DNA of 35,439 nucleotides from a virus (IMGVR_UViG_3300027806_000094:1-35439); one strand, 5' to 3'. Positions 3,474 through 21,131 are shown, numbered from the stretch's first letter. The notes: generated from the sequence alone by a model not told the origin. Numbers and translations are program-made.

Positions 3474-3848
3474 ATGCACGCGATGAGAAACCGAAAAGCT
3501 GAGCACGTAGATTATGGATTTATGGCCGGCTGGATTGAGGAGAACCCAAAGGCAATGCCGTCGAATATCGATGGCGTCATCGAACGCAACGGGTGCTTTC
3601 TGTGGATGGAATGGAAGCACGGCGGAGAGTCGATGTCGAAGGGTCAGCAGATTCTTCTCTCCAAGCTCGCTCAAGTGGATGACTTTTTTGTAATCGTGAT
3701 TACTGGTTACAGTAACTCCACAGGCAGAGAGGTCAGGGCAATTCAAAAGATTCTCCCCGATGGATACTGGAAGCTCGTCGGAGAGAGCGAGGCCGACTTG
3801 AAAGTCTTAGTCAACAAATTCTACAACTACGCGGAAATGAAATGCTAG
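3474..3848 (+). CDS. PD-(D/E)xK / VRR-NUC-like small nuclease
   Basis: SNIDG...FLWMEWK...SKGQ motif. Overlaps the terL start. Confidence 0.6.
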   Translation: MHAMRNRKAEHVDYGFMAGWIEENPKAMPSNIDGVIERNGCFLWMEWKHGGESMSKGQQILLSKLAQVDDFFVIVITGYSNSTGREVRAIQKILPDGYWKLVGESEADLKVLVNKFYNYAEMKC

Positions 3849-5197
3849 GAGCTGACATCGCAAGCCCTGCGCTGTGGGCACGAAAACGAACCGAAGGCAA
3901 ATTTAAGATACCGCGGCACATCGCATACTTGGATGACCTTATCGTCCGAGCGTTGAACGGGATGGGCTCGAAGCGTATCGTTGTTTCAATGCCACCGCGG
4001 CACGGCAAGAGCTTTTATATTTCAGAGCACTTGCCAGCGTGGTACGTCGGAATGTTCCCGGACAATCAAGTCATCCTCACAAGCTACGAAGCAGAGTTTG
4101 CTGCGGAGTTCGGCGGAAAGGCTCGAGACCTAATCGCCAACGACGAAAACTATCTCGGAGTGCGAGTCGACCCCACGAAGAAGTCGAGCTCGTTCTGGAA
4201 AATCGACGGGCATAGAGGCGGGGTGAAGACGGCAGGTGCTCGCGGTCCAATTACCGGTCGCGGTGCTCACTTGTTCATCATCGATGACCCAATCAAAAAC
4301 TCCGAGGAAGCACAAAGCGAAACGCTTCGAAACAAAAACTGGGACTGGTTTCGGTCCACGGCGTACAGCCGACTTGAGCCCGGAGGGGTGATGGTTGTCG
4401 TACAGACCAGATGGCACATGGATGACCTCGCCGGCCGGATTATCCGAGAGCTAGCGAACGTCGAACCGTGGGAGGTGGTAAGCTTCCCGGCAATCGCGGA
4501 AGAGCATGACGTTTTGGGCCGGGCCCCGGGCGAGCCGCTTTGGCCTGACCGCATTGCACTCCCGCAACTCGAAAACATCCGCGGGACTGTCGGGCCGTTC
4601 TGGTGGTCCGCTCTTTATCAGCAAAGGCCGACGCCGGCGGAAGGCGGGCTCTTTAAGCTCGAATTCTTCAACCAGTTTTACGACGTCTTCCCTCAGGTGG
4701 TGAAGTCCTGCAGGTTCTGGGACTTGGCCGCAACAAAAAATTCGGACTCTGACTTCACTGTCGGGCTGATGCTTTCGCTCTGTGACGACGGGAATTTCTA
4801 CGTCATGGATATTGTTCGCGGTCGATGGGCCCCTTACGAACGCGACCGCATCATTAAACAGGTCGCCCAGCTTGACGGATACAACGTCAAAATCCGCATG
4901 GAAAAAGAGCCCGGGGCCAGCGGTGAGTCGCTGATTGATTCGATGGGCAGGATGCTGACCGGCCACAACTTCCGCGGGATACGCTCGAAAGACAGCAAAA
5001 TGGCCCGCGTGAATTCCATTGACGGTATCGCCAGTGTGGCAGGGGTTGGGCGACTTCGCCTCAGGAAAGGGCATTGGACTCGCGAATTTATCGACGAATT
5101 GATTATGTTTCCTAATGCACAGCACGACGACCAAGTCGATGCCCTGTCAGGTGCGTATAAGGCACTGACCCAAGAAAAAACTGTCTATGTAGCTTAG
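3842..5197 (+). CDS. terL: terminase large subunit
   Basis: Walker A MPPRHGKS, Walker B IIDDP, QTRW coupling motif, LYQQRP, nuclease-domain WDLA and HDDQVDA. Confidence 0.95.
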   Translation: MLGADIASPALWARKRTEGKFKIPRHIAYLDDLIVRALNGMGSKRIVVSMPPRHGKSFYISEHLPAWYVGMFPDNQVILTSYEAEFAAEFGGKARDLIANDENYLGVRVDPTKKSSSFWKIDGHRGGVKTAGARGPITGRGAHLFIIDDPIKNSEEAQSETLRNKNWDWFRSTAYSRLEPGGVMVVVQTRWHMDDLAGRIIRELANVEPWEVVSFPAIAEEHDVLGRAPGEPLWPDRIALPQLENIRGTVGPFWWSALYQQRPTPAEGGLFKLEFFNQFYDVFPQVVKSCRFWDLAATKNSDSDFTVGLMLSLCDDGNFYVMDIVRGRWAPYERDRIIKQVAQLDGYNVKIRMEKEPGASGESLIDSMGRMLTGHNFRGIRSKDSKMARVNSIDGIASVAGVGRLRLRKGHWTREFIDELIMFPNAQHDDQVDALSGAYKALTQEKTVYVA

Positions 5198-5204
5198 GAC
5201 GAAC

Positions 5205-8200
5205 ATGCCAAGTGCAAGTCAAATCGCCGCCGTGATGGCTGAAATGGACAGCCGCAATAAGTCCAGCTCGCCTCAGACTGCAGATAACGTCAAGTCGATG
5301 CCAGCGATGAACCTTACTGGCCTCCGTTCCGCAATGGCGGGCGTGCTCCCGGGCGGATGGTCAAGCGACCACGCAGCGGAAACCGAGAAGTACGCCGGCT
5401 GGCATTACATCGCAATCAACGCAGTGTACAAGCAGGTCATTCAGGCCGGCGTTGAAGTGTACGAGCGTCGGTTGGTTGTTCCGAGTCTACAGAAACCGCA
5501 AGCAGCACCGCCAGCTCCAGTTATGGACGGCCAGCAGCCTGTTCCGCAAATGCCCGGAGGCTTCACGAAGGGCGTAAACGAGCAGCAAGAGAGCATGGTT
5601 GTCATGCCTCACTTCGACCCAGTGATGAAGCGGCTGAAGCGTCCGAACCCGGCTCAAACTCTTTCGGCGTTCAACGGCGAGCGTGCAATTCAGCTTTGCC
5701 TCACAGGCCGGGCAATCACTTGGAACGTTCGCAGCAAGCTCACTGGGAAGATTATCGAGCGATATGTCATCCCGACTTGCCTTGCACAACCACGCCCACC
5801 TTCTCGCGAGCTTCCGCGGGGCGGATGGTATGTTCTGCCGGAAGGGGCCCGGTACGCCAACGAAGCTGGCTTCTACATGACAGGCTCGCTTGAGGCTGCA
5901 TTCGGAAAGACCATCCCAGCTGAAGACGTGCAGGTTATCAAGTTTCCGCACCCGAAATACAAAGACGACGGTCAGTCGCCAATCTCCGCGTCGGCTCTCT
6001 GGACTGACACAAGCGAAATGGTCGACAAGAGCCGGCACAACCACCTGAAAAACGGTCCGGACCCGTCGGTGGTTATCGGTCTGGATGGAGAGGTTGACGA
6101 GACCAGCATTCGCCGCGGTGAAGCAATCTTCAACGAGCGATACGCCGGGGTGGACAAGCACGGGAAAGCGATGTTCGTCACCCCTGCCAAGACGATTACC
6201 CCGCTGACCACAGCTCCAAAGGATATGGCTTACGGGGATGGCTTTACGCAACTCCGGGACGCACAACTCGCGATTCACGGTGTCCCTTTGGCGGCGGTTG
6301 GCTTGACTAGCCCGACAGGACGCGAGGGGCTCTATGCTCCGCTCCTGCAGTTCATCGAGCTCTCGGTACAGCCGATTCTGAAAGTGCTCGGAGACGAGGA
6401 CTCTGCCCTCTACTCAGAGGACGAGGGACGGGAAGTCGAAATCTGCTACACGGCGAAAAAGTTCAACGACGAAGACCTCATCGAAAAGCAAATCCAGACC
6501 GACATCACGGCTGGCGTGCTGACGAAGGGCGAGCTTCGAAAGCTTCGCGGTCGCGAGCCGTTTGGAGACGAGCGTGACGAGGAAATTTGCGGTGCTGCTG
6601 CGGCTCCCGCGGCAATGCCCGGGATGGTTGGGCCAGACGGACAGCCTGTCGGCCCGGATGGAATGCCGATGCCTCAGGGGACAAACCCTGAAGACGCTGC
6701 AGCGATGATGACCAAGCCGACCAAGCAGCCGTTTGGGCGGGCAATGCAGGGCGGAAAGCCGCGGCTCGCTTCCCAGATTGCAAAGGCATTCGCCAAAGAG
6801 CTCGAGAAGTACGGAATCGTGAAGGGCGGGCCCGGCTCAGGAAATCACGGCCACTGTGGCGGGACTCCGGACGACGGCGAGCCGGGAGGCTCTAGGCCAG
6901 CCGAGGAATGCGGCAACACGCCAGCCCAGCCACAAGCCGCCCCAGCGACGCAAACGCCTCCAGCGGCCCAACAGGCCCCTCCAGCAGCCCCACAGGCCCA
7001 GCCGGCAGAGGCCGTTCAGGCACAGCAAAAGCCCGGGCGGTTCTCGGCGGCAAATCCGCACGCTTACGGAATTGACCCACGCCAGCGGAGAATCCTATCG
7101 GAAGAGGCATTCCAGTACGTCTCAGAGCGTATCGGGACTGACCGAGAAAGCGAGCTCGGGAACGGGCCGACGGCAAACGACCGGGAGCGGAAGTTTCTCG
7201 AGGACCGCGGCTGGGTTCCGACGGGCAGTTCGTTGCAGGCTCGCTACCAAGATTTTTTCGCGGAAGAACGAAACGCCGCAATTGCCGCATACTCCGGACG
7301 GGGAGACGCGGCCCGAGCTCGTGCACTTGCCACCGATAACTTTTACGGAATCTCTGCCGAGGAAGCTCAGGCACACTTGGACACGCTTGGTTCAGGTGGA
7401 GAGGCAAGCTACCGAACACGGACACTTATCACGCAGGCAGTTGGAAACTACTCTGCAGAAAACGAGGACGGGGCAAAGTGGCTCGCCAGCACGCTCGCAG
7501 CTCAAGGCCTGAATGAGACTCAGATTGTCCAATCAATCAACCTGATGCGAGCTTCGCAGGGTGGAAACTGGGCTCGGTTTGAGCCCGGAGACGCGGCACG
7601 AATTGCAGTGAACGCACTGGCAGACCCAACAGCCTCGCCTCCGTCACCAACTCCGCCGGCACAGAGCACTGAGAGCCCGGCCGCAGCACCGAAAGAAAAA
7701 ACGAGCCGAGTTGCACCAGAGCCGGTCGACGGCACGCAGTACAAAGAAAACAAGCTCACCAAGGACATCAAAGAACGAGCGGCGAAAGTTTCGTTTGCAG
7801 ACGGCGGTGTGCCAGTAGACGAAGATAAAATCCGAGAAGACCTCGAGCTCGAAGCGGAAGGTGAGTTTCCGGATTACGAGCACGCACCGGAAATCGCTTC
7901 AAGCGTTACCGAAAACATGAGGGAGAGCCTCAATAGCTACAGCGACTTGCCTCGCGATATCCGCACCGAAATAGACAGCTTCCTTGAGACGTTCGGGGAC
8001 GAGTTCACCGAGTCAATCTCAGCAGAAAGGTCTGTTGAACGATTTTGGGAAAACAATGAAAGCGACTTCGAAGACGCGATTAAAGCCGAGGCTGGCGATG
8101 ACGAGGAAAAGCTTTCCGAGTTGACGGCTCGAGCTGAAGAAGTTTTCGACGACTTAAAGCTCGAGGCTCGCAACGCTGCGGAAAAATACGAAAGTGCAAT

Positions 8201-10535
8201 GGACTCTGTTCGTTCAGAGTGGGTGTCGAATTACATCAACGACTACCTCGACGAGCGAGTCGCAGAAGCAAAGGGCGAAAGTGTAGGCTGGGGCTCAATG
8301 GAGCCGAACACTTGGCATTCATCTGACGATGGCTCGAAGCTCAAGCTTGTCACTCGCAGTGGAAATGAATTCCACTTAGAAGTAAATGACGAGCTGTACG
8401 CTGACCACGGGATTAGCGGCAAGGTCGAGAATATGATATTCACCGACAAAAAGGGAAGCATTGAAATCACCGGCCAAGGCCGAGGGGAGCAGTTCGAGGT
8501 GTTTCGCGGAGTGTCTTCTGCATTGCTTGCGAGAATGCAAAACGAAGACATCGATGCCATAGCATACACTGCAATCGAGCCGAACAGGCAAGAGCTTTAC
8601 GACAAGCTGACGCAAACGCTCGCTCAGGTCGACGGAAAGTATGTAGCAGTCGTTACTGGCGGAGGCAGCAACCGCTCCGCAAACTATATCGTTGCTAAGC
8701 GTGAGCACGCGGAAAAGCTTCGAGAGTACATCGACAACTACGACGAGTCTGGCGGGTCCGGTGCAAGCTGGCTCGTCAAGCAATACTTCAACGGCTTCGT
8801 GAAGTCGCACGGCAAGAAGTGGGCCCGGTGGTACGACTACGCCAAGGGCGGAGCTGGCTCTGGAAACTTCGGGCACTGCGGTGGAGACGGAGGCGAAGGA
8901 AATCCGGGTGGCTCGAAGCCTGCAGACGAGTGCGGGACGGGGAAAAAGAAACCAGCAACCAAAAAGCCGTCGGCAAAGAAAGAGACGGCACCTAAAAAAG
9001 GCGGGAAGCTTGTCGACTTAGAAAACCCCGGAACACTCGAGGTTCACCCGGACTCAAAAGAGTACGCTGGAACGAGCGGAATAAAAATCGACGCCAGCAA
9101 GAGCGACGGCAAAGAGTGGAATCACGCTCCTACGGCAGACATCAACAAGTGGAATAAGGAAAACGGTTTTACCCGAAAGGGTGTCGGTAAAGACATCGAC
9201 TTGGTTGATTATGCTAAAAAGCTAGATGAGGCCTACGGCGGGCCGGCACGTCCTTTCCTTGTGGAAGTGCCGAATCCATCAAAAGACAACCCAGACCGGA
9301 TGTCTACTGTAATAAGCAAGGAAAACGTAGAGCGTGCTGCGGTTGCTTTAGCCGACATGGTTGAGAAAGCCGACAAGCACAATCCAGAGTGGGCATTATG
9401 GTACTCGGAGATTAAGGGCATCCGCGACGAATTGTCTGAGGAGAAAGGCAAATTTAATTTCTCCCCGGCGTCCAGAGAACTGCTAAAGACCGACGGAGGG
9501 GCAAAGCTCTTTGTCGGCATTCTAGCGATGACGTCTCAGGAGGGTGCACCAGAGGACAACCTTGTATCAACGCAAAAGATTTACGACCACTACACCGAGC
9601 ACGGAGAACTTCCCGAGGGGAGAACGTGTCGTCAATTGATTGCAGGTAAGGCTGGAATTGCAATTGCAAAAAACATAGAGAAGTACAAAAAAGTCGCCGC
9701 ACACTTCGATGGTGATTTTGCCAAGACATACGACTTCCTGAATAAGCAAGTTCTCGCTAGGGACTTGCATGGCATAATGGCCGAGATGGGAATCGTAAAA
9801 GCAGACGCAAAAGACAAATTCAACCCCGGTGCGTTCGCTGACCAATACGTGCCGATTTCGTTTATCTTCGGTCCAAAGATTGGTGCGTTCCACGGAAATC
9901 TCGGAGAGTTGCCGGGAGTTCTTACTCAAGACCGATGGAACGTTAGAACGTGGGGCCGGCTTACCGGGCAGATTGGATTTACTGAAGAGCAAATCACAAA
10001 TACTTGGGTTGCTGTGACAGAAGCAAAGGACAAGCCAACTGCTGAGCACGTTAAAATTTCCGGCATGAGTGCCCGTGATATGATTTCCGCAGCCAAGCGA
10101 GTTGCTGCCGGGGATGACTTAACTGACAGTGAGTACGTAGGGCTGAATAAGCTTGCCCAAGCTCACGTTTCGTCTGGTAAGGAATCGAAAAACCCAATCA
10201 TCAAAAGAAACGACTTCACCACAAAGCTCAACACCGCGATGAAGAAAATTACGACCGTAGTCGACAGCCCGGGCGGTGCACTCGAAAGATTCGCAAACCA
10301 GCTCGCAGCCGAGACGGCCGTGGAAATTCTAGCCACCCGCGGGAACACGAAAACGGTGAGGGAGGTTCAGGCGTCGGCTTGGATGGTCGAGAAAAAGGCT
10401 TGGTACGACGCAGGAGTCGGCAATAAGCGAGGCGGCGAGAATAGCTATGCGATGGCACTTGAAAAACTGCGATTAAACGGAATCCGGGTAAAAACCAAAA
10501 AAGAACTCGAAGAAGAGGGAACCGGCGACGAATAG
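5205..10535 (+). CDS. portal protein fused to two tagged cargo modules (polyprotein)
   Basis: The N-terminal ~460 aa is an HK97-like portal (LKRPNP, GQSPI, IHGVP, GVLTKGELRKLRGREP). It is followed by a Pro/Met/Gly linker and modules starting at tag copies aa 540 and aa 1214. Confidence 0.85.
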   Translation: MPSASQIAAVMAEMDSRNKSSSPQTADNVKSMPAMNLTGLRSAMAGVLPGGWSSDHAAETEKYAGWHYIAINAVYKQVIQAGVEVYERRLVVPSLQKPQAAPPAPVMDGQQPVPQMPGGFTKGVNEQQESMVVMPHFDPVMKRLKRPNPAQTLSAFNGERAIQLCLTGRAITWNVRSKLTGKIIERYVIPTCLAQPRPPSRELPRGGWYVLPEGARYANEAGFYMTGSLEAAFGKTIPAEDVQVIKFPHPKYKDDGQSPISASALWTDTSEMVDKSRHNHLKNGPDPSVVIGLDGEVDETSIRRGEAIFNERYAGVDKHGKAMFVTPAKTITPLTTAPKDMAYGDGFTQLRDAQLAIHGVPLAAVGLTSPTGREGLYAPLLQFIELSVQPILKVLGDEDSALYSEDEGREVEICYTAKKFNDEDLIEKQIQTDITAGVLTKGELRKLRGREPFGDERDEEICGAAAAPAAMPGMVGPDGQPVGPDGMPMPQGTNPEDAAAMMTKPTKQPFGRAMQGGKPRLASQIAKAFAKELEKYGIVKGGPGSGNHGHCGGTPDDGEPGGSRPAEECGNTPAQPQAAPATQTPPAAQQAPPAAPQAQPAEAVQAQQKPGRFSAANPHAYGIDPRQRRILSEEAFQYVSERIGTDRESELGNGPTANDRERKFLEDRGWVPTGSSLQARYQDFFAEERNAAIAAYSGRGDAARARALATDNFYGISAEEAQAHLDTLGSGGEASYRTRTLITQAVGNYSAENEDGAKWLASTLAAQGLNETQIVQSINLMRASQGGNWARFEPGDAARIAVNALADPTASPPSPTPPAQSTESPAAAPKEKTSRVAPEPVDGTQYKENKLTKDIKERAAKVSFADGGVPVDEDKIREDLELEAEGEFPDYEHAPEIASSVTENMRESLNSYSDLPRDIRTEIDSFLETFGDEFTESISAERSVERFWENNESDFEDAIKAEAGDDEEKLSELTARAEEVFDDLKLEARNAAEKYESAMDSVRSEWVSNYINDYLDERVAEAKGESVGWGSMEPNTWHSSDDGSKLKLVTRSGNEFHLEVNDELYADHGISGKVENMIFTDKKGSIEITGQGRGEQFEVFRGVSSALLARMQNEDIDAIAYTAIEPNRQELYDKLTQTLAQVDGKYVAVVTGGGSNRSANYIVAKREHAEKLREYIDNYDESGGSGASWLVKQYFNGFVKSHGKKWARWYDYAKGGAGSGNFGHCGGDGGEGNPGGSKPADECGTGKKKPATKKPSAKKETAPKKGGKLVDLENPGTLEVHPDSKEYAGTSGIKIDASKSDGKEWNHAPTADINKWNKENGFTRKGVGKDIDLVDYAKKLDEAYGGPARPFLVEVPNPSKDNPDRMSTVISKENVERAAVALADMVEKADKHNPEWALWYSEIKGIRDELSEEKGKFNFSPASRELLKTDGGAKLFVGILAMTSQEGAPEDNLVSTQKIYDHYTEHGELPEGRTCRQLIAGKAGIAIAKNIEKYKKVAAHFDGDFAKTYDFLNKQVLARDLHGIMAEMGIVKADAKDKFNPGAFADQYVPISFIFGPKIGAFHGNLGELPGVLTQDRWNVRTWGRLTGQIGFTEEQITNTWVAVTEAKDKPTAEHVKISGMSARDMISAAKRVAAGDDLTDSEYVGLNKLAQAHVSSGKESKNPIIKRNDFTTKLNTAMKKITTVVDSPGGALERFANQLAAETAVEILATRGNTKTVREVQASAWMVEKKAWYDAGVGNKRGGENSYAMALEKLRLNGIRVKTKKELEEEGTGDE
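6822..6914 (+). repeat. 31-codon tag, copy 1
   Basis: KGGPGSGNHGHCGGTPDDGEPGGSRPAEECG. Confidence 0.95.
8844..8936 (+). repeat. 31-codon tag, copy 2
   Basis: KGGAGSGNFGHCGGDGGEGNPGGSKPADECG. Confidence 0.95.
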
Positions 10536-10539
10536 CCTG

Positions 10540-10567
10540 TAGACTTAACCTGTTTGCGGCGTACAGT
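10540..10567 (+). promoter_or_regulatory. possible sigma70-like internal promoter
   Basis: TAGACT-16 nt-TACAGT in the 53-nt gap, followed by a GAGGAG RBS. Confidence 0.25.
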
Positions 10568-10588
10568 TGCAGGATGAGGAGCTAAAAT

Positions 10589-12343
10589 ATGAGCGAAGAA
10601 CGAAACGAATCACCCAGCATTGAAGTGGCTCTCTGGACGATGAGCGACAGCCAATTTGACGGGTTGCTGGATAAGCTTGTGCAGATGTACAAGTCTGACT
10701 CCAAGACCGAACCAAAGCTAAAAAGCGTTCCCCCCCGGGCGTTTCGCCCCAGCGGTAGGTTTGTAAAGGCCACTCCTGACGAGCCGAAATCCGACTGCGG
10801 GGCCAACGCTCAAGGTGGCGGCGGTTTCCAGCCCGGCAATACCTGTGCGACCGGGGAAGCTGTTGCGGCGACTGCCGGCGGCTCTTCCGCGGCTCAGGGC
10901 GATAAGCCTGACGGCAAGAACGCTTGGCACACCGAGACGAACCCGATTGAGACGCTGCGAAATACCGGCGGCTTCACGTATCACCCGAAGACCGGCAAGA
11001 CCCCGACCGAAGGCTTTGCCGTGTCAATCTTTCCCGAGCAAGAGCGGGTGGTTGACATGGATAAGGTTAGCATGGAGACGGTTGAGAAGTATCGCGACTC
11101 AACCAAAGATGCTTGGGCGAATGATGACAGCGTGTACGTTGGCGGATGGCATAACGCCCAAGGCGACGGCAAGGTCTATCTAGATGCAACAAAAGTATTC
11201 GACTCTAAAGCGGAGGCAATCGCAGCTGGAAAAGAAAAGGGCCAGCTCGCGGGATACGACATCAAGACTGGCGAAGTCTTTGAAATCCAGACCGCTGAAG
11301 AGCGTGATGCTTGGATGAAGCGTCAGGTGGAAATGGCAACAAACGGCATCCGTCAGGAGAAAGCTGTACCTTCGCCAACCGGAGCTGGAGAGTACAATCC
11401 GTTCGTAGAGCAAGACGGAGACGGAAACGGCGTTACAGACGCGGCTCGTGTTGGCGTGCCGGCGATGGCTGTTCCTCCTCCTCCGGAAGTTCCGCGGCTC
11501 CCGAACCTCAACCAAGAGGAGCGGCACGTTGAAGAGCGGTTCGCCCGGACCTTCGAAAGCTTTCCTGATGAAATGGCGAACGCTTACGCGGAAATGGTCA
11601 AGAACTCGGATAAGCCAAACACGTTCGAGACTGACGCAGCGAAAAAACTCAGCTCAGCTTGGAACGATTCGGACCTCGACAAGCGTGCAGAGAAGCGAGC
11701 CCGCTATAATCTGTCGCTTCACCAAACAGCCAACGCGATTGCGAAGCGGGCGTTTGAGAAGCACGTCGCGTCATTGCCTGCCGGAAGCGACATTCTCGTT
11801 ACTGTTGGCGGTTGCGGGGCCGGCAAAGGCTACGCTCAGAAAAACGTCCCCGAAGTTGCACCGCTCGCCGGGGCAGCTGGAGCTGTCTGGGATTCAGCTG
11901 GAGACCAGAACGCAACTGAGAACCCGTGGATTCAAAGCCTTGCTGAAAAGCACGGGCACAAGGTCACGTACGTTTTCGTTCACGCCGACCCGTACGTTTC
12001 TTGGGCCGACCCGGAACGCGGGGTGGTGAAGCGTGCAAACGACCCTTCGGACGGCCGGATGGTCGACGCTTCTGTTTTTGCTGATTCTTATGGAATTGGC
12101 GGAAAGAATCATTACAATTTTTACAACCAAAACAAGAATAACCCTGCAGCAAAGTTCGTGTTTATTGATTCGACGAAAGGCAAGCCGAAGCTTGTTAGTG
12201 AGTTTCCGAAAGAGGCGATTCAAGTGGACCGAAAGCAGTTGCGAGATTTTGCCGCTGCAACTGTTGCGAACAGGCAAAGCGTTGCACCACGGGTAAAGCG
12301 TGGGGCGTTGGTTGGAACACGAATTTGGGGAGGTAACAAGTAA
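10589..12343 (+). CDS. two-module cargo protein with a C-terminal zeta-toxin-like P-loop kinase
   Basis: LVTVGGCGAGKG P-loop, AVWDS, VTYVFVHAD and KRAxxxxxGRMV motifs. N-terminal Cys-pair motif and an unknown GGFT...GGW...KVYLD domain. Confidence 0.7.
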   Translation: MSEERNESPSIEVALWTMSDSQFDGLLDKLVQMYKSDSKTEPKLKSVPPRAFRPSGRFVKATPDEPKSDCGANAQGGGGFQPGNTCATGEAVAATAGGSSAAQGDKPDGKNAWHTETNPIETLRNTGGFTYHPKTGKTPTEGFAVSIFPEQERVVDMDKVSMETVEKYRDSTKDAWANDDSVYVGGWHNAQGDGKVYLDATKVFDSKAEAIAAGKEKGQLAGYDIKTGEVFEIQTAEERDAWMKRQVEMATNGIRQEKAVPSPTGAGEYNPFVEQDGDGNGVTDAARVGVPAMAVPPPPEVPRLPNLNQEERHVEERFARTFESFPDEMANAYAEMVKNSDKPNTFETDAAKKLSSAWNDSDLDKRAEKRARYNLSLHQTANAIAKRAFEKHVASLPAGSDILVTVGGCGAGKGYAQKNVPEVAPLAGAAGAVWDSAGDQNATENPWIQSLAEKHGHKVTYVFVHADPYVSWADPERGVVKRANDPSDGRMVDASVFADSYGIGGKNHYNFYNQNKNNPAAKFVFIDSTKGKPKLVSEFPKEAIQVDRKQLRDFAAATVANRQSVAPRVKRGALVGTRIWGGNK

Positions 12344-12546
12344 TGGCGAAAGAAAAAGACCCGCTTGTCGATGAGGCTTATGAGGCGTTTCGAGCTGAGG
12401 AGCAAAAGTACCAAGACGGACTGGACAAGCTCGCACGAGAAAGCGGATTTTTCGTTGACTGCGACGAAGAGATTTTTCCTTTGAACGACGACGGCTCAGC
12501 GAAGAAAGACAAGGGCGAGAAGAGTGACGACCTTAAAATCTTCTAG
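12343..12546 (+). CDS. small acidic protein, candidate antitoxin/immunity protein
   Basis: 67 aa, TAATG coupling to the zeta-like gene, GGAGG RBS. Confidence 0.55.
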   Translation: MAKEKDPLVDEAYEAFRAEEQKYQDGLDKLARESGFFVDCDEEIFPLNDDGSAKKDKGEKSDDLKIF

Positions 12547-14128
12547 TCATTGGCTGGGCTTAATCAAGGGTGGGCCGGGTTCCGGCAACCACGGGCATTG
12601 CGGCGGTCAAGGAGGACCCGGCAATCCCGGCGGCTCGTCGTCGGCGGGCGAGTGCGGCACGTCAACCGCAAAGCCAGATAACGCAACCGCTCTTAGCGAC
12701 GAGTTCTTTGATTGGCTCGAGGACTACTTGGCAGGCCGCTCGGAAGTTGACTTGAGTCAGTGGTGGAGGCACCGCGGCGACAAGGAATACGAATTGCGTG
12801 CCATTGGCACGAATGCTATTGCGAGTAACGTTTCGAGGATGTCGACAGCGGCAACAGACAAGCTTACTCGAGAGTTTGATTTAGGATTGTCGTTCTGGGG
12901 TAGGCACAAGCAAGGAATCAGCAACGGCCTCGAGAGCTACTACCAGAACGCTTTCGAGCTGGTGAGCAGCGGAATTGCTGAGGACTATAAAGACAAAAGC
13001 TTGGGCGATGTTTTTCTCGACACGGTAGAGCGCAGCATAGCCGACGGGCACTGGGCTCGCTTTGGAATCTCAAAAGAGAACGAAATCAATCTAATTTTGG
13101 CTCTTTCGGAACGAGCAGCTCAGTCAATCGATTTTAGAGAACTTGAGGCCCGCGACTTTTGGGCTAAAAGCCAAGGCAAGATTGACTTGAATGATATTCG
13201 TCACGGCGGAAGGGCTGCTGCTTCTAAGGATATTCAAGGCTTGCAGCCTGTAATGGAATCATTGATGGAAGCTCGGGCTCGTCATTTAATGGGCACGGAA
13301 GCTAACTTCGATGACGCAAAGGAAAACTTTCGAGCTTATTGGAGGAGCTGGCTTAATGACTCTCAAAGTCCACTTGGTCACTGGATGGCACACGTCGCCT
13401 CGAAAGAGCTTGGTGCACCATCGATAATGCGTGGACGTGAGTACGACGTATCAATCGATGGAAATTATTCTGGAGTCAAGGATTTTCTAAACAGAAATCA
13501 AGGCGGCGTACGCATCGACGATATTGCAGACACCAACTACAAAACAGACGCAGCGATGGTTAAGGCAACTTGGGAGGTAGCTCAATTAGCACTTCGAGAT
13601 GAGCCAGAAAGCATGGTACTGTTTCGAGGTATCAAGCCGAGAGAGGACAGTGAAGTCGACTTCACAGTGAAAGAGGATGAGAATCTAATGTTCAAGACAG
13701 ACATTACTATCGAATCGTCTGCACTTCAAAGCTCTTCAACGAAATTCAGTGCTGCTTCTCAGTTTGGGAAAATTGACCGCGACCATCCTTTATCGGAAGA
13801 GATTCGAAGTTTAATTGACAGCCGAGACGATTACGGCAAAAAAATGGACTTCACTGAGCCGACGATGGTTATCGGTGCTGACATCCCGAAATCAAGAATT
13901 TTTTCGGTTCCGTCATACGGTGCAAACGACGCGGGAGAGGAGGAGTATGTAATTATGGGCGGAGACTGGGACAAGAATGCTAAAGTGTACTTGATTGGTC
14001 TTGGAAATGGCGACCGTCTTAGCGAGCAAGATGCAGAGAAGTTTATTAAGTGGAACGCAACGCAAGACAGGAAAAAGCGAGCTGAAGTCGACAAGTGGGC
14101 AGTAAGCACCAGAAAAGGCGGGAAGTAG
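12524..14128 (+). CDS. tagged cargo protein with a C-terminal R-S-E ADP-ribosyltransferase (DraT-like)
   Basis: Tag at aa 15. LFRG, QSSST and IPKSRI...GEEEYVIMGG motifs. Confidence 0.75.
   Translation: MTTLKSSSHWLGLIKGGPGSGNHGHCGGQGGPGNPGGSSSAGECGTSTAKPDNATALSDEFFDWLEDYLAGRSEVDLSQWWRHRGDKEYELRAIGTNAIASNVSRMSTAATDKLTREFDLGLSFWGRHKQGISNGLESYYQNAFELVSSGIAEDYKDKSLGDVFLDTVERSIADGHWARFGISKENEINLILALSERAAQSIDFRELEARDFWAKSQGKIDLNDIRHGGRAAASKDIQGLQPVMESLMEARARHLMGTEANFDDAKENFRAYWRSWLNDSQSPLGHWMAHVASKELGAPSIMRGREYDVSIDGNYSGVKDFLNRNQGGVRIDDIADTNYKTDAAMVKATWEVAQLALRDEPESMVLFRGIKPREDSEVDFTVKEDENLMFKTDITIESSALQSSSTKFSAASQFGKIDRDHPLSEEIRSLIDSRDDYGKKMDFTEPTMVIGADIPKSRIFSVPSYGANDAGEEEYVIMGGDWDKNAKVYLIGLGNGDRLSEQDAEKFIKWNATQDRKKRAEVDKWAVSTRKGGK
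12566..12658 (+). repeat. 31-codon tag, copy 3
   Basis: KGGPGSGNHGHCGGQGGPGNPGGSSSAGECG. Confidence 0.95.
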
Positions 14129-14130
14129 AA

Positions 14131-16698
14131 GTGGCAAAGAAAGCTTGGGCATTTCCGACAGAATCATTCGAGCAGGAGCGTAAGCGAAAAAAGAAGTCGC
14201 ACGCCAAAGGGTTCGCTGCTTGGATGGGGATTGTCAAAGGCGGTCCCGGCTCGGGCAATCATGGACATTGCGGTGGAGAAGGCGGAGATAATAATCCGGG
14301 CGGGAGCAAGCCGGCTAGCGAGTGCGGTGGCGAGCAGAGTGCTGAAGAAAGAGGTGGCGAGAAGTTCGAGGCGGTTGGAGGAACAAGTAATCACGAGTAC
14401 GCAAAACTCGGCCCGGACGAAGAGTACAAGGAAGCACTGAGCAAGAACAAGCAAGACAAGTTCGGTTCCCATCGAAGCCTCGAGCCCGGAACGCCGGTTG
14501 CACTGCGGATTGATATTCCCGCATACAACAGCACTGGGAAGTACGTCGTGACGGTGCACAAGTACACCGGAGGGAAAAGTGTCGGCACTCCAATTGGATA
14601 TGACTCGATTGTGAGATTGTCCGGAGAGGTTGTGTTTGCCTCCAACGAAAAAGGTGCGGAGACAATCCTGACAGGAGAGAGCAATAAGTATCCGCTTGCC
14701 ACGGTGAAAGGGAAGTTCGAGACCTCTCGTGAGTTGCCTGAAGACTTCGAGGACTGGACCCCGGTTGGCTACAACCCGAAGACCGCGGCTTACTTTTACG
14801 ACAAGCGAACTGGCGACGAGATAACCGGCGGAGAGGATGCAATCTCTGTTGGTAACACGGTTTTTATTCGAGTCCCGGATATCGGGGAGCGAAACGCGAA
14901 GCGACGTTACAAGGCCTTTTCTAGATGGATGGGGCTTACGAAAGGCGGGCCCGGCTCGGGAAATTACGGCCACTGTGGCGGTACTGGAGGGAAAGACAAC
15001 CCCGGCGGAAGTCGCCCAGCGGGCGAGTGCGGCCTGAGCGGGCAGACAGAGCCAATGGAGGTCCCGGAGTTTGCCGAGAGCTCGCGGGACTTGAAAAAGC
15101 TCGGGGAGGATGAAGAGTGGGATGATGTATCTGGAACTAGAAGGGTCACTGTATTTCATTTCAGCCGAGAGGACAGGTCCCAGACGGGATTGAAGCGGGG
15201 TTTTGCCGGAACGGCCGCTGCAGGCGAAGAGCGGGCCTCTATGGAGTACGAGAACGGCCGGCTGAAAACAGAGAGTGCGGTGATTCACGCTTACCTGTAC
15301 GGGGCGAAGAGAGAGAAGGTTGTCCCGGGCAAGGTGATGCACAAAATTGAAGCGACGATGTCGGTGCTGGATGTCGGCAGCGATATCTACCAAGGCATTC
15401 TCGACGAGGCACAGAAAGAGGCTTACGCGACCGGACGGCCGAAGCTGGCTATCGCACGCGAGCAAGCGAGGATTCGAGGGTACGATGCCCTCGTCTCGCA
15501 GCGTCACGGGATTATGCAGATTCTCCGCGATATCTCCCCAAAAGAGATAACAGTGATGACTCGCGAAGGTGAAATCGGATACGAAATCAAAGCTTCCGAC
15601 GACTACATTCAAAAAAACGAGCAGGAGCAAAAGAGATATCACGACAGTGCCATAAGCTACTTTAGTAGCGGCCGTGCCGGTGAATTGACGATGGCTTACG
15701 TCAGGGACGCCATGACTCTTGACGGAATCTTGAATCAAATGATTGCGGATGAGCGGGTTAAAATGCCGCTTGCAACTGCAGGTGAGATTCAGGATAGAAT
15801 TCTGCAGAAGCAAAGCCCGGAAGATATCTCGGCAGTGAAAAGTGCTCTTGAATCTCACCTCGAAAAAGTGACAGACAAAGACGCAGCCGAAGAGTACGCG
15901 AGAAAGCTGAAGTACGGAATAGTCTCTGGAAAAACGAAAGAGCAGCTCATTGAAGAAGGGTGGGAGCAGCGAGTTGACTTGCTTAAAAAATCAAAACTTG
16001 CTATTCGAGTTCCTGTTTCCGTCGTGAACAAAGTGTTTGACGACCAAAGAATGAAGAGCCAGTTTGAAACTGGTTCTTCGCAGGGTGCTCTAAATGACAA
16101 AATGCGGAGAGATTTTGAGAAGGGGTCGATGGGTGTTCCTTGGAAAATAGAGGACAGCAAAAGGCCAATTTACGGATACGTTAGCGACGAGCATGGATTG
16201 CACGATAACAGCTCGCTAAGACACTACGGGCACGTTGCTTTCATTCTGAAGGAAGGATTGAAAGACCGAACTACCGTTACATTTGGAGACTCGCTCGACC
16301 ATCGACTTCCGGCGAGTATGTACAGGGACCCGAAGCAATACTCTGTTGCCCCTGCTGAGTTCGGCGAGGTGACGCTGAAAACAAGCTTGTACACTGAAGC
16401 TCAAATTCACGGCGGAGTCAGCATGAACGACGTTGAGGATATAATCGTCAGCGAGCAAGTGTTGGTGGATGCAAGAAAAGACCGGTTTGATTCGTTTGCC
16501 GAGCTCATTGAAAACGCATCGTTCTACTCAATCGATGTGAAGGTTGCCGTCAATAAATCAGGGCGGATAAAGAAAACAAGCGTCGCTGAGTATTTGAATT
16601 CAGTGAAGGATATTTACATCGCTTCGTCTTCTGAGCCGGAAGGCACAAGGCGGGCGATTGAAGAGGTAATCAAGTTGTCAAGTAAAAATAGAGGGTAA
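14131..16698 (+). CDS. multi-module cargo protein with two tags and a C-terminal DUF3626-like domain
   Basis: SQFETGSSQG, RPIYG, YG, TFGDS and YTEAQIHG motifs. Start is GTG 14131 or 14095 (same frame). Confidence 0.75.
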   Translation: MAKKAWAFPTESFEQERKRKKKSHAKGFAAWMGIVKGGPGSGNHGHCGGEGGDNNPGGSKPASECGGEQSAEERGGEKFEAVGGTSNHEYAKLGPDEEYKEALSKNKQDKFGSHRSLEPGTPVALRIDIPAYNSTGKYVVTVHKYTGGKSVGTPIGYDSIVRLSGEVVFASNEKGAETILTGESNKYPLATVKGKFETSRELPEDFEDWTPVGYNPKTAAYFYDKRTGDEITGGEDAISVGNTVFIRVPDIGERNAKRRYKAFSRWMGLTKGGPGSGNYGHCGGTGGKDNPGGSRPAGECGLSGQTEPMEVPEFAESSRDLKKLGEDEEWDDVSGTRRVTVFHFSREDRSQTGLKRGFAGTAAAGEERASMEYENGRLKTESAVIHAYLYGAKREKVVPGKVMHKIEATMSVLDVGSDIYQGILDEAQKEAYATGRPKLAIAREQARIRGYDALVSQRHGIMQILRDISPKEITVMTREGEIGYEIKASDDYIQKNEQEQKRYHDSAISYFSSGRAGELTMAYVRDAMTLDGILNQMIADERVKMPLATAGEIQDRILQKQSPEDISAVKSALESHLEKVTDKDAAEEYARKLKYGIVSGKTKEQLIEEGWEQRVDLLKKSKLAIRVPVSVVNKVFDDQRMKSQFETGSSQGALNDKMRRDFEKGSMGVPWKIEDSKRPIYGYVSDEHGLHDNSSLRHYGHVAFILKEGLKDRTTVTFGDSLDHRLPASMYRDPKQYSVAPAEFGEVTLKTSLYTEAQIHGGVSMNDVEDIIVSEQVLVDARKDRFDSFAELIENASFYSIDVKVAVNKSGRIKKTSVAEYLNSVKDIYIASSSEPEGTRRAIEEVIKLSSKNRG
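14236..14328 (+). repeat. 31-codon tag, copy 4
   Basis: KGGPGSGNHGHCGGEGGDNNPGGSKPASECG. Confidence 0.95.
14941..15033 (+). repeat. 31-codon tag, copy 5
   Basis: KGGPGSGNYGHCGGTGGKDNPGGSRPAGECG. Confidence 0.95.
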
Positions 16699-16703
16699 AT
16701 TGT

Positions 16704-16913
16704 ATGCTGATTGCTACTCGAGGGAATGACAAACTGTTTCTTGAGCACGAGAGCGAGGGGAAGCGAGTTGGGCGGATTGAGCTCGAAGACGGCGTTGTCG
16801 TAAATAATGTAAACGTAGACTCTGTTCTTGCCCGCGGATACTGGGAGGAGGCTCCGAATCCACGGTCGGTCAAGTCACTAAATATCCAGCGACGTCCGGC
16901 GAGTGAAAAGTGA
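16704..16913 (+). CDS. small protein, candidate immunity protein for the DUF3626-like module
   Basis: 69 aa, starts 5 nt after the cargo gene, contains VDSVLARGYWE. Confidence 0.55.
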   Translation: MLIATRGNDKLFLEHESEGKRVGRIELEDGVVVNNVNVDSVLARGYWEEAPNPRSVKSLNIQRRPASEK

Positions 16914-17497
16914 ATCCACAAAATCGGCCGGAATACGAAAAGCAGATGCTCGCAAAAGTAAGCTCGATTGCCGAGCGTTGCTGTTGTGCAGAAAGAGATG
17001 AGCAGAAGATTGACTGTTTCGAGCTGATGGACCTCGAGGACTTAATGCTCGAGATTGCCGAAGCCGCCTACGAGGCATTGCTGGTTCAGTTGGATATTCG
17101 CACTATCCCGCGAATGCCTATTTCTGAGGTTGACGACTTTCTGCGGCAGATTGCTTTAAGAATGATTGAGCTGTCGACCGAAAATAAACTGGACGAGGCT
17201 TGGGCGAACACGGCCGCGGTTACGATTGTGACCCGGCTCTGGACTATCGGCGAGGGGCTGGCTGTCCGGCACGCCAAAACTCGGGTCACTCAGTACAAGT
17301 CACTGCCAATGGGCCTGCTTTACCTATACGCGGAAGCTTCAAAGCGGCGTAAAATCGTGAGCGTGTGGACAACGGAGGCCGGGCCGTGCGAGCTCTGTGC
17401 GGCTCTCAGTGGCTCATTGATTGATGACATTATTAACAACGGCCCTCCAGCCCACCCGCGGTGTCGATGTCACTTAGAGCATACGGTGATTGAGTGA
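16910..17497 (+). CDS. MuF / SPP1 gp7-like minor head protein
   Basis: C-terminal W...CELC..L.G...PPAHPRCRC signature, located between portal and protease. Confidence 0.8.
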   Translation: MNPQNRPEYEKQMLAKVSSIAERCCCAERDEQKIDCFELMDLEDLMLEIAEAAYEALLVQLDIRTIPRMPISEVDDFLRQIALRMIELSTENKLDEAWANTAAVTIVTRLWTIGEGLAVRHAKTRVTQYKSLPMGLLYLYAEASKRRKIVSVWTTEAGPCELCAALSGSLIDDIINNGPPAHPRCRCHLEHTVIE

Positions 17498-18066: not shown

Positions 18067-18363
18067 GTGATGGACTTGGATGGGAAGATAGTTTGGCCCG
18101 ACAAACTTGAGATTCATACGACCACGAAGATTCTCGGCTCTCGTCAAATGCGAGAGGCGGTGGCGTATATCAAATCCGCAAAGCACCCTGTCGTCATCAT
18201 GCAGCTCAACAGCGATGACTCGGTGAAGCAATACTACTACAACGGGGCTTGGGTGCAGCCGAAGACTCGCCTTTGCTATTTCGACGCGGTGAGCGCCATA
18301 ATCAGGCACAAGAATCTTTCGCTGGTAATCCCCGAATTCTTTACATTCATTGTAAAGCAATGA
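18067..18363 (+). CDS. hypothetical protein
   Basis: Starts 3 nt after the previous gene. No motif recognised. Confidence 0.5.
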   Translation: MMDLDGKIVWPDKLEIHTTTKILGSRQMREAVAYIKSAKHPVVIMQLNSDDSVKQYYYNGAWVQPKTRLCYFDAVSAIIRHKNLSLVIPEFFTFIVKQ

Positions 18364-18410
18364 CGCGGTGGGTGACTGATTCGCCTACATTTAATCGCGG
18401 GAGACCAGCT

Positions 18411-19829
18411 GTGAGCAAAGAAAACAACAACTTATCAATGACTGGCGGAACTATTTCTCTGCCACAGATAGGCTACGTTGTCGACGTTGACTCGAGCAAA
18501 ATGACCGCTTCGGCAATCATTTCGACTCCTGCCGTGGACCGTGTCGGGGACTCAATGGACCCGCTCGGTTGCGACCTTGCCCAGTACCGGCTCAACCCGG
18601 TTGTGTTCTGGAATCATGCCTTCGATGGGTTTACCAAACCGATTGGCATTTCAGAAGACAAGGAAACTGGTAAGCTTGAGATTTACCCCACCAGCGAAAA
18701 CATCAAAGCGACCTGTCACTTCACGAATAAGTTTCTGGAAGCCGAACAGATTTTTGAGCTGGTGAACGAGAAGACCATCCGGGCGACTTCGATTCGGTTT
18801 GACCCTATCGGCTCGCCCAGTCGGGTCAATGGCGTCCAAAGGTTCAACAAGTGGTATCTGCTTGAGTGGTCATGGGTGCCGATTGGGTGCAATCCCGAGG
18901 CGGTCCAAGACGTGATTGCAAAAGGCTATCTCGCCGGCCGCAGAATCTCAGCTGGTATCGCGAAGTCTCTGGAGCTTGTAATCCCTGAACGCAAGCTGCA
19001 GGTTCCGGGTTACAGCACGAAGAGAGACACAAAAATGCGGTTTGCAAAAGCCTGTGACGACAAGATGAAGTGCGACTGTGAAGAGGGCGACGCTCTCGGA
19101 GGTCAAGTGAAAAAGCAAGACGAAGAAATGAAACGACCCGGCGACGCTCCCCCCCCGGGGACCAAGCCCGGTGCCGCACCTCCTGCAGCAGCCGCTCCTC
19201 CGGCCGCTCCCGGGAAAAGCCCTGACGTTGCCGCTGCAGCTCCCGGCCAAAGCCCGGACACAGCCGCTGACCCAGAAGGCGAAATGAAGAACAACGGCGG
19301 AGAAGAGACGCCAAAGCCTTATGGGGCACAGCTGGTCGAAGCCGCTTACAACGCACTCAACGAAGTCCGGGTAAACATCCAAGAGGGTGCAACCACTCTC
19401 GAGAACCCGGAAATCGAGGCTCTTATCGCGACCACGCTCGAAGCATTGTCGACGATGATGGGTAAGGTTGAAGACACGTATGCGAAGGCTTACGTGCAGA
19501 ACCCGAAGTACAACTACACTCCACTTGTATCGAACGGACGCCGGCTTGACTGGCACGAGAAGCTGAAATCGTTTCTCGCCTCTGGGGCACGCAATCGATT
19601 CGCAACGAGTGGAATTGCAGAACGAATCAAGTCAGTTGTCCAGTCCGGAAATATCCGCGGGCGGGAGGCTGAAATTCTGAAGTCCTGTGCACAACAGCTG
19701 CAGAATTTTGTTGAACAGTCTCGCTCCGACGTGAGGACCGAGGGTGACGGTGTCGTGAGTGAACGGCTGGAGACTATCACAAAATCGTCTCAGGCTACGC
19801 TCGACTTTCTGAAGGCGTTCAAACGCTAA
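18411..19829 (+). CDS. HK97-family prohead protease with a C-terminal scaffold-like extension
   Basis: ISTPAVDRVGD, NPVVFWNH, PIG, ATSIRF and LLEWSWVPIGCNPEA motifs, then a Pro/Ala linker and a helical region. Start placed at GTG 18411 after GGGAG. Confidence 0.9.
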   Translation: MSKENNNLSMTGGTISLPQIGYVVDVDSSKMTASAIISTPAVDRVGDSMDPLGCDLAQYRLNPVVFWNHAFDGFTKPIGISEDKETGKLEIYPTSENIKATCHFTNKFLEAEQIFELVNEKTIRATSIRFDPIGSPSRVNGVQRFNKWYLLEWSWVPIGCNPEAVQDVIAKGYLAGRRISAGIAKSLELVIPERKLQVPGYSTKRDTKMRFAKACDDKMKCDCEEGDALGGQVKKQDEEMKRPGDAPPPGTKPGAAPPAAAAPPAAPGKSPDVAAAAPGQSPDTAADPEGEMKNNGGEETPKPYGAQLVEAAYNALNEVRVNIQEGATTLENPEIEALIATTLEALSTMMGKVEDTYAKAYVQNPKYNYTPLVSNGRRLDWHEKLKSFLASGARNRFATSGIAERIKSVVQSGNIRGREAEILKSCAQQLQNFVEQSRSDVRTEGDGVVSERLETITKSSQATLDFLKAFKR

Positions 19830-19847: not shown

Positions 19848-21131
19848 ATGTCGAACATTGAACAAAAGCTTCAGGCGGTCGAGAAGACTCAAGCCGCCAT
19901 TCTCGAGACCCTCAAGAGTCTCGACCAGCCCAACTACCGAGTTGTCGGTGGTGACGGTGGCGTCGCAGTCTCTTACATCGAAGAGGGTGGGCCTCAGGAC
20001 GTCGTTCGAATCGACAACCTGTGGTCACGCGGCGAGAACACGATGAAGAACTTCCGCAAGAACTCGTACCTCCCCGGGTACAAGGGTGCGAAGGAAGGCG
20101 GCTTCAAGTCTTTCGGCGACTTCCTGTTGACCGGTCTCCGGGACTCGAAGTCTGCAGAGTGGCAAAATCGTCACGCCAGCTGCTACAAGGCAGTTCAAGG
20201 CATGTCGGTTGGCGCAGCTGAAGACGGCGGGTACATGGTGCAGCCCGAATACTCCGACCGGATGTTGGAGCGGGTCTACAACAACAAGATTTTCTCGATG
20301 ACCGACAATTACACTGTCGCCGGCAACAACTTGGTTTTCATGCGGAACGCTGAAACCAGCCGTGCAAACGGAAGCCGCAAGGGCGGTATCCGCGGATACT
20401 GGCTGGGTGAAGGCCAGACCGGCACCAAGTCCGCACCGAAGATGCGACAGGTTCAGCTCCGCCTGAAGAAGCTCTGCATTTTGGTTTACCTGACAGAAGA
20501 GCTCATTTCGGACGGTGGCACTGCTGTCCAGTCATACGTCGAAAAGTGTGCAGCCGAGGAATTCAACTTCCTCATCGGCGATGCAATCTTCAACGGAACT
20601 GGAGTCGGCCAGCCTCTGGGCATCTTGAATTCGGGCTCTTTGGTGAACATCACCAAGGAATCCGGACAGGCCGCAAGTACCATCGTCGCAGCAAACATCG
20701 ACAAGATGTGGGCTCGCCGGTACGCTGCAGCTGACGGATACAGCTGGTTCCACAACCAAGACTGCGGACCTCAACTCGATTCGTTGAGCCAAGCAATCGG
20801 CACCGCTGGTATCGCCCTGTACCGTCCGAGTAACGGGCTTGCTGGCAACGCTCCTCAATTACTGAAGACCGCTCCTCGCGTTGAGACTGAGTTTAACTCT
20901 ACCGTCGGAACCGTTGGCGACATCCTGCTGGCCGACTTGAGTCAAGTTTTGTCTATCACCAAGGGCGGTGTCAGCCAGATGGCCTCGACTCACGTCGAGT
21001 TCCTTACCGACCAGACAGCATTGAAGTTCACCATGCGTCTTGACGCTCGCCCTTGGGACGACACTCCGCTGACCCCTTACAAAGGTTCCAATACTCAGTC
21101 CAGTTTCGTCGCCCTTGAGACCCGCGCCTAA
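19848..21131 (+). CDS. major capsid protein (HK97 fold)
   Basis: Motifs EDGGYMVQPE, WLGEG, TEELISD, IFNGTGVGQPLGILN and FLTDQTALKFTMRLD. N-terminal delta-like domain. Confidence 0.95.
   Translation: MSNIEQKLQAVEKTQAAILETLKSLDQPNYRVVGGDGGVAVSYIEEGGPQDVVRIDNLWSRGENTMKNFRKNSYLPGYKGAKEGGFKSFGDFLLTGLRDSKSAEWQNRHASCYKAVQGMSVGAAEDGGYMVQPEYSDRMLERVYNNKIFSMTDNYTVAGNNLVFMRNAETSRANGSRKGGIRGYWLGEGQTGTKSAPKMRQVQLRLKKLCILVYLTEELISDGGTAVQSYVEKCAAEEFNFLIGDAIFNGTGVGQPLGILNSGSLVNITKESGQAASTIVAANIDKMWARRYAAADGYSWFHNQDCGPQLDSLSQAIGTAGIALYRPSNGLAGNAPQLLKTAPRVETEFNSTVGTVGDILLADLSQVLSITKGGVSQMASTHVEFLTDQTALKFTMRLDARPWDDTPLTPYKGSNTQSSFVALETRA

Follow-up and report, generated by a model that had tools for sequence, protein, structure and literature searches.

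A cysteine-bearing glycine-rich repeat in an HK97-like phage as a probable lineage-specific variant of a widespread head-cargo tag

Head genes, cargo modules and five copies of a tag

The window analyzed here is the whole 35,439-nucleotide stretch of the viral contig IMGVR_UViG_3300027806_000094; all features below are on the plus strand and are given in its coordinates. The gene order on this 35.4-kb contig is terminase, a portal fusion, three cargo ORFs, two of them trailed by a small ORF, a MuF-like gene, protease/scaffold, capsid and tail genes. Judged by its genes, the window is that of an HK97-like tailed phage. The large terminase subunit (3842..5197; Pfam Terminase_6N/6C, phrog_38) is followed by a 1776-aa portal fusion (5205..10535) in which an HK97-type portal core (about aa 1-540; PF04860, E 4e-22) is joined to two tagged modules. 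Upstream of the terminase a 212-aa ORF (1379-2017), possibly the small terminase subunit, has a homolog in L348. It contains a G-P-G-G-N-H-L-H stretch loosely resembling the start of the tag described below, probably by chance.

The first module of the portal fusion (6915..8843; ESM score 0.90) is free of cysteine. Its C-terminal part is like phage clusters labelled DUF6934, which is a lead only. The second module (8937..10535; ESM score 0.93) is DUF7178-like and is predicted to have a helix-hairpin-helix (HhH-GPD) DNA-glycosylase-superfamily fold. Its model (pLDDT 56) matched NTHL1 in VIA with a Z of 9.5 and an rmsd of 2.9 over 109 aa, and many HhH-GPD structures ranked below NTHL1 in the match list. 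Foldseek with this module found nothing at E 0.001. The next ORF (10589..12343) encodes a phrog_3170 domain and then a C-terminal P-loop (Walker-A-like) domain which had no Pfam match; going by its motif we take it to be zeta-kinase-like. A 67-aa acidic ORF (12343..12546), kept in relatives, comes after it. The stand-alone tagged cargo of 534 aa (12524..14128) has a Pfam DRAT match under the cut-off (E 2.3e-4) and an R-S-E-like motif, and is a probable ADP-ribosyltransferase fold; the fold prediction of its C-terminal part was unusable (pLDDT 34). The last cargo ORF (14095..16698, likely start 14131) joins an L5 gp82-like module (PF25735, E 7e-5, under the cut-off) to a DUF3626 module (PF12294, E 1.6e-9). 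In relatives the DUF3626 module is found alone behind the same leader and tag, and the DUF3626 region of a sister phage matches a TP901-1 gene annotated 'minor head protein'. A 69-aa ORF (16704..16913), also kept in relatives, follows; together with the 67-aa ORF it is a possible partner or immunity protein. The architecture is of the polyvalent type, i.e. several unrelated domains per chain, within or fused to the portal-terminase head module.

The MuF-like protein (16910..17497) is short and divergent. Its 195 aa end just past the CRC of a CxxC...H-P-x-C-R-C motif, and a C-terminal toxin domain is absent. It did not itself match Pfam MuF (the orthologue in the sister phage L039 did at E 0.026), yet it aligns with Pfam-confirmed MuF proteins. 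Near the N-terminus it has three consecutive cysteines against one in L039, and eight cysteines in total against six. The HK97-type head maturation protease with its scaffold tail (18249..19829; phrog_80, E 4e-11) probably starts at 18360 or 18438. The catalytic His and Ser motifs align with HK97 gp4, PF04586 is matched by its cluster mates and not by the protease itself, and the protein has many sites at which a hydrophobic residue and K precede A, S or G. The HK97-type major capsid protein (19848..21131; PF05065, TIGR01554) has a predicted cut after K114 (codon at 20187).

A preliminary description of this DNA had listed five copies of a 31-residue peptide. All are in frame, a consensus fits them without a gap, and His11, Cys12 and Cys30 are invariant in 5/5, as had been claimed. 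Copies 1 (6822..6914) and 2 (8844..8936) divide the portal fusion into the core and two modules; the predicted P1 residues are K540, which puts the start of the tag proper of copy 1 at 6825, and K1214. Copy 3 (12566..12658) heads the stand-alone cargo behind a 15-aa leader, with K15 as the predicted P1. Copy 4 (14236..14328), behind a 36-aa leader, and the internal copy 5 (14941..15033), preceded by a second leader-like stretch that ends in W-M-G-L-T-K, divide the last cargo ORF. The tags are located at module boundaries only, in cargo that either extends the portal or is encoded by genes lying between portal and MuF.

The four cargo ORFs contain 10 pairs of 31-aa segments with at least 15 identities; by the same criterion none of 60 shuffled versions, 30 global and 30 local, gave a pair. 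Invariant are 20 of the 31 positions, and at 19 of these 20 at least two codons are used (Cys30 has one codon). Pairwise the copies share 56-68 of 93 nt (60-73%), their synonymous sites having diverged. Between the window and a close relative, L005, the five orthologous copies have 28 synonymous and 3 non-synonymous codon differences. The repeat is real and is selected as protein: the synonymous drift between copies and the codon comparison with L005 bear out the earlier claim of selection on the peptide.

The tag family and the residue that precedes it

When contigs from viruses, metagenomes and genomes were scanned with tag patterns, 559 raw matches (328 loci, 309 distinct) were obtained. 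A filter for a downstream GG removed 32 and kept 277 distinct tags in 155 contig groups, which is a lower bound for the size of the family. The common form is GGxGSGN[FHYW]GHxG(RP)GxxGGS. In alignment, all five window tags have the GGxGSGNxGHxG core and then GGS. They lack GRP and hence the short GRPG form, and are a variant. Between His and GGS the spacing is 8 for 262/277 tags and 11 for 13/277; eight of the latter, including those of the window, are from the window lineage, and five are Cys-free tags in four other groups. A Cys follows the His in 9/277, namely eight of the window lineage and a single-Cys short form, and is absent in 268/277. A metagenome scan for His-Cys forms gave 68 loci; 19 His-Cys matches without the downstream GG were removed as chance or incomplete, which left the window lineage and the one single-Cys short tag. 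In 120 further proteins 0/319 tags had a Cys within 32 residues, a count biased in this direction by the Cys-free canonical query. When neither the His nor the first two Gly were fixed in the search, His was found in 172/172, Gly1 in 172/172 and Gly2 in 171/172. The sister phage L039, with a capsid 88% identical, has a short tag without Cys at each of the two portal sites and in front of its DUF3626 module; L386, another sister, has it at both orthologous portal sites, and long and short Cys-free forms are mixed in one phage, L020. Because homologs vary in length and in the Cys pair, these are local features, and the His and the register are those of the family. The fixed length that had been noted accordingly stands within this lineage only, 262/277 homologous tags being three residues shorter. 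A Cys2/His metal site cannot be the function of the family since both Cys occur only in this lineage.

The tagged ORFs comprise 42 portal fusions, 5 protease fusions, 4 MuF fusions, 60 stand-alone ORFs with the tag within the first 80 aa, and 35 others. Tagged proteins carry PF18760, PF03496, PF06414, PF00293 and PF13563, which we take to be polyvalent head cargo families. In single head regions up to 11 tagged modules were counted (L071; 8 each in L064 and L032/L033). Two relatives without the cargo block have MuF and no such tag. Named genomes with tagged prophages include Oxalobacter paraformigenes HOxBLS (L316), which is of the K type, and Clostridiales CCNA10 (L263), of the D type.

Scanned against Pfam at E 10, 38 tags matched 0 families, and PDB sequence searches with the tag profile and the capsid gave 0 matches. 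In a cultured-phage collection tblastn with the window tag found no match and the canonical tag only 8 short partial DNA matches, both searches being limited by low-complexity filtering. The start of the tag presumably resembles Gly-rich DNA-binding motifs of small terminases (DUF5681, AT-hook-like GRP); this reading is unsupported, given the 0 families in Pfam and a window variant without GRP. Its G-x-x-x-S is also, as we assume, like the N-myristoylation consensus. This was dropped because we know of no such enzyme in bacteria. A description of the tag was found neither in the literature searched, which was mostly open-access, nor in the accessible part of PMC5883640.

The residue directly before the tag differs across the family (K, D, L, N, E, A and others). 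Within a phage it is mostly the same: in 43 multi-copy groups sameness was 0.87 compared to 0.23 in 2000 shuffles (maximum 0.40). It follows the class of the head protease. The majority residue was K in 9/9 groups with an HK97-type protease and D in 36/36 with a DUF2213 protease, whose homologs are labelled 'head maturation protease' in RefSeq. It was L/A/N/Q/Y in 13 groups with a divergent DUF2213-like protease. A protease was recognizable in 58/155 groups, which belong to about three phage clades and hence are not independent; in 14 groups the DNA examined had a portal and no recognized protease. In the window K precedes 5/5 tags, matching its HK97-type protease. The sameness within phages could also come from duplication. 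In L027, L049, L119, L149 and L107 every tag is preceded by N or E, with no protease class assigned here; these phages may represent further specificity classes.

Similar sites are found in the head proteins. Profiles of three residues were trained on the flanks of the tags, a small residue was demanded at the following position, and matches were counted per 1000 aa in phages of the same class. The K motif was present at 6.1 in protease-scaffold, 10.2 in the capsid N-terminus and 1.2 in terminase, the D motif at 11.9, 10.3 and 1.1, and the L motif at 4.6, 9.5 and 1.5, respectively. Off the diagonal the D motif reached 8.0 in capsid bodies of the L class and 5.7 in capsid N-termini of the K class. 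The K-site excess in the window was 14/43 Lys versus 37/279 (p 0.003) with a motif defined post hoc; two stricter definitions gave p 0.17 and 0.06. Because 12/214 Lys inside cargo bodies are also K-motif sites, the motif alone is no predictor of cutting. The capsid K114 aligns within one column of the published cut of HK97 gp5 between K103 and S104 (PMC10275583, in the part available). Taken together, the Lys before the tag probably is the residue after which the head protease cuts, a site that the preliminary description had overlooked. The 31-mer is conserved as first described, yet its first residue then most likely lies outside the mature tag, and the tag would head each released module. 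The portal of Faecalibacterium phage FP_Brigit (L803:9710-12196), a phage with a DUF2213-type protease, has a C-terminal module that starts behind a D with HPR...G.F; going by this sequence it fits the D rule with a fourth type of tag.

Possible functions of the tag

The tag is kept on portal, protease and MuF fusions, which need no loading signal; therefore, loading alone does not suffice as an explanation. It is unchanged behind three protease classes and thus is not the recognition site of one protease. For these two reasons we read it as a post-cut N-terminal handle which would serve the retention of head-carried modules and their ejection with the genome, a reading we hold to be moderately probable. 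The docking or translocation role suggested earlier is the same as this reading, and it too is predicted from sequence.

Alternatively, the tag could be a loading (capsid-targeting) signal that scaffold, portal or MuF reads before the cut and that is merely retained thereafter. The 60 stand-alone ORFs with an N-terminal tag are in line with this, as is the tag being common to lineages in which the leaders are not. These leaders are lineage-specific and 8-64 aa long (one 5-aa call is probably a late start). Retention on fusion proteins speaks against it, and the exact register of Gly1 behind P1 would matter only after the cut. Further, the targeting sequence in T4 precedes the cut site and is cleaved off (PMC7411985, as far as its text was available), so the leader is the better fit. 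We consider such a signal unlikely.

A still smaller role would be that of the P' half of a good protease site and a flexible spacer, for module separation only. The tag is Gly-rich and always directly behind the predicted P1, and a small residue also follows K at the predicted scaffold and capsid sites. These sites, however, have no tag, one tag sequence is found behind three protease classes with different P1 residues, and the invariant Ser, Asn and His are more than a spacer needs. This makes it very improbable.

The cysteines need separate consideration. The six cargo bodies of the window contain 2 Cys in 2913 aa compared to 64 in 6897 aa of the remaining 25 proteins of the window (p 6e-10). 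Cys is also scarce in cargo that follows canonical tags, at 315 in 90197 aa (0.35%), against 1.27% in terminases. From their composition, the Cys-poor bodies would fit proteins in an oxidizing particle that must unfold to exit. A second family of tags, absent from the preliminary description, is present in the window itself at 10796..10846, after a predicted cut at K60 (10766); it has the form C-G...GGF-x-x-GN-x-C with the Cys 16 apart. Across the window and L329-L450 the pattern is C-G-x-G-x-(xxx)-GGF-x-x-GN-x-C, including a three-residue-longer variant; the Cys spacing is 13 (88 copies) or 16 (9), and the first Cys, which the search did not fix, is present in 97/97. A third family, CPTGxGGG[IV]xxxC (L358, L367, L451-L624), usually follows R/N-[AG]-[FY] and has its second Cys, likewise left free in the search, in 142/144. 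Domains of the phrog_3170 type follow the second tag in the window, L387 and L445, whereas in L020, L046 and L167 they follow the GSGN tag. For the gp82-like module it is the GSGN tag in the window and the third one in L358 and L367. As the same cargo domains occur behind three types of tag, the tags look interchangeable, and by these patterns a Cys-closed Gly loop looks like a recurring tag form.

Could the chemistry of the cysteines then be the function, in that Cys12, Cys30 and His11 (with His9 in three copies) bind a metal or that intermolecular disulfides chain the cargo? Both Cys are present in 9/9 distinct peptides of the lineage, 12 of the 14 Cys of the cargo stretches are in tags, and the two other families have invariant Cys pairs of their own, judged by the one Cys in each that the search left free. 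Yet the 268/277 without Cys after the His, the orthologous cargo behind Cys-free tags in the sister phages and the mixture of Cys-free forms in L020 leave this with little probability. Of the disulfide- or metal-bound loop proposed earlier, the disulfide is plausible because the cargo bodies are nearly Cys-free and because elsewhere these domains are found behind two further kinds of Cys-pair tag; that the signal consists in a fixed length and the Cys pair was not supported. For this lineage we prefer an intramolecular 12-30 disulfide, suggested by the sequences, over intermolecular links or a metal site.

Finally, L005 is 90-99% identical to the window in the head genes and 40-70% in the cargo stretches. 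Its mosaic breakpoints are at 8936 (the last codon of tag 2), about 7800, 10770, 13590-14130 and 15570-16740, and the module between tags 4 and 5 is missing from the relatives P0003 and P0004. A main role of the repeat as an anchor for recombination between DNAs, by which cassettes are swapped, is extremely unlikely: identity to L005 is about 90% up to the last codon of tag 2 and about 40% right after it, and a module is inserted between duplicated leader-tags compared to P0003/P0004, but the copies are only 60-73% identical as DNA with diverged synonymous sites, selection acts on the protein, and further breakpoints (about 7800, 13590, 15570) are inside modules, so that recombination at tags is taken as a by-product.

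The preferred reading, the post-cut handle, would operate as follows. Cargo very probably enters the prohead by its fusion to the portal or by a short lineage-specific leader and is cleaved behind Lys by the HK97-type protease, for which similar sites are predicted in the scaffold and the capsid N-terminus. The leader of the stand-alone cargo in the window ends in W-x-G-hydrophobic-x-K; in sister cargo eight residues precede the tag, with W-L-G-[IL]-[IL]-K conserved. The cut would expose Gly1 in a fixed register. More tentatively, the freed GGxGSGNxGH end might then bind a head component common to three head types, for which MuF or the portal vertex are the best candidates, and might lead the Cys-poor, unfoldable module out via the tail; we regard these two steps together as possible. 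In the lineage of the window Cys12 and Cys30 would, quite probably, oxidize after lysis to a loop that stiffens the handle. The loop would be accessory because sister phages do without it.

MuF was present in 46/46 loci that show both portal and protease. In the accessible text of PMC5576092 MuF is reported from 35% of tailed phages and 57% of siphoviruses. This difference makes MuF the leading candidate for a reader of the tag, although the loci are from few clades and MuF also occurs in the two tag-free relatives. A complex prediction with the MuF alignment, Zn and the tag alignment had a score of 0.00 and, its controls not having been folded, speaks neither for nor against this.

Relation to known systems and meaning

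By analogy, the mode of action would resemble the propeptide processing of T4, applied to polyvalent cargo linked to portal or MuF. In T4 the internal proteins IPI-III and Alt carry a CTS propeptide which the gp21 protease removes (PMC7411985, available in part). A short N-terminal leader, its removal by a prohead protease, and enzymes that are kept in the head and ejected with the DNA would be common to both, here as a prediction. In T4, however, the signal precedes the cut site and is lost, whereas here a conserved tag of 20-30 aa is downstream of the predicted P1 and would stay. By position the leader, and not the tag, matches the T4 CTS. Furthermore, the protease here is HK97-type (Lys), and the modules are chained as polyproteins, one chain being fused to the portal.

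Polyvalent and portal- or MuF-fused effectors predicted to be packaged and injected were described by Iyer et al. in 2017 (PMC5512222) and 2022 (PMC9503650). As far as the accessible texts go, multi-domain cargo in portal-terminase modules, fused to portal, MuF or head protease, is shared with the present phage. For such chains self-cleavage by metallopeptidase domains was proposed, and in those texts neither a boundary tag nor a head-protease site was seen; the main text of the 2017 paper, its FTP supplements set aside, has 'GSGN' and 'linker' 0 times. Jamet et al. 2017 (PMC5576092, in its accessible part) described MuF polymorphic toxins encoded near the portal with variable enzyme domains, often before small ORFs. 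The 67- and 69-aa ORFs correspond to the latter. Here, in contrast, MuF is short and unfused, and the variable domains are portal-borne or stand-alone and tagged. With HK97 the phage shares the homologous protease with its aligned His/Ser motifs and the capsid site at K114; in HK97 (AF069529), however, the portal gene has 1275 nt and the protease is directly next to it, with no intervening cargo block or MuF. So, on the gene and peptide sequences compared, its position sets the tag apart from a T4 targeting sequence, and MuF here does not have the architecture of a MuF toxin. Our verdict is that the 31-mer of the window is the Cys-bearing form, confined to one lineage, of a widespread cargo tag which would act after the cut and which apparently has not been published.

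A bolder version is that MuF-type tailed phages have in common a hitherto undescribed code for protein ejection: whatever the family of the protease, its cut would free one of four or more short N-terminal handles that can replace one another (GGxGSGNxGH, HPR..GRF and two Gly loops closed by Cys), and one conserved head component would read the handle and thread the enzymes out together with the genome. As a joint claim this is rather unlikely. If true, a 30-residue tag would suffice to bring any protein through a long non-contractile tail, and in the lineage of the window the first handle would have become a loop closed by a disulfide, in convergence with the two Gly loops.

What the heads of most tailed phages contain, and how the contents exit with the DNA, is an open question, and the role of MuF is still unexplained. 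The tag would provide a sequence rule by which head cargo and its module boundaries may be spotted in uncultured phages. The one residue before it would predict the specificity of the head protease, K for HK97-type and D for DUF2213. The question of loading versus ejection would be reduced to a peptide of 30 residues, of which the Cys pair itself appears to be a local refinement of a widespread tag.
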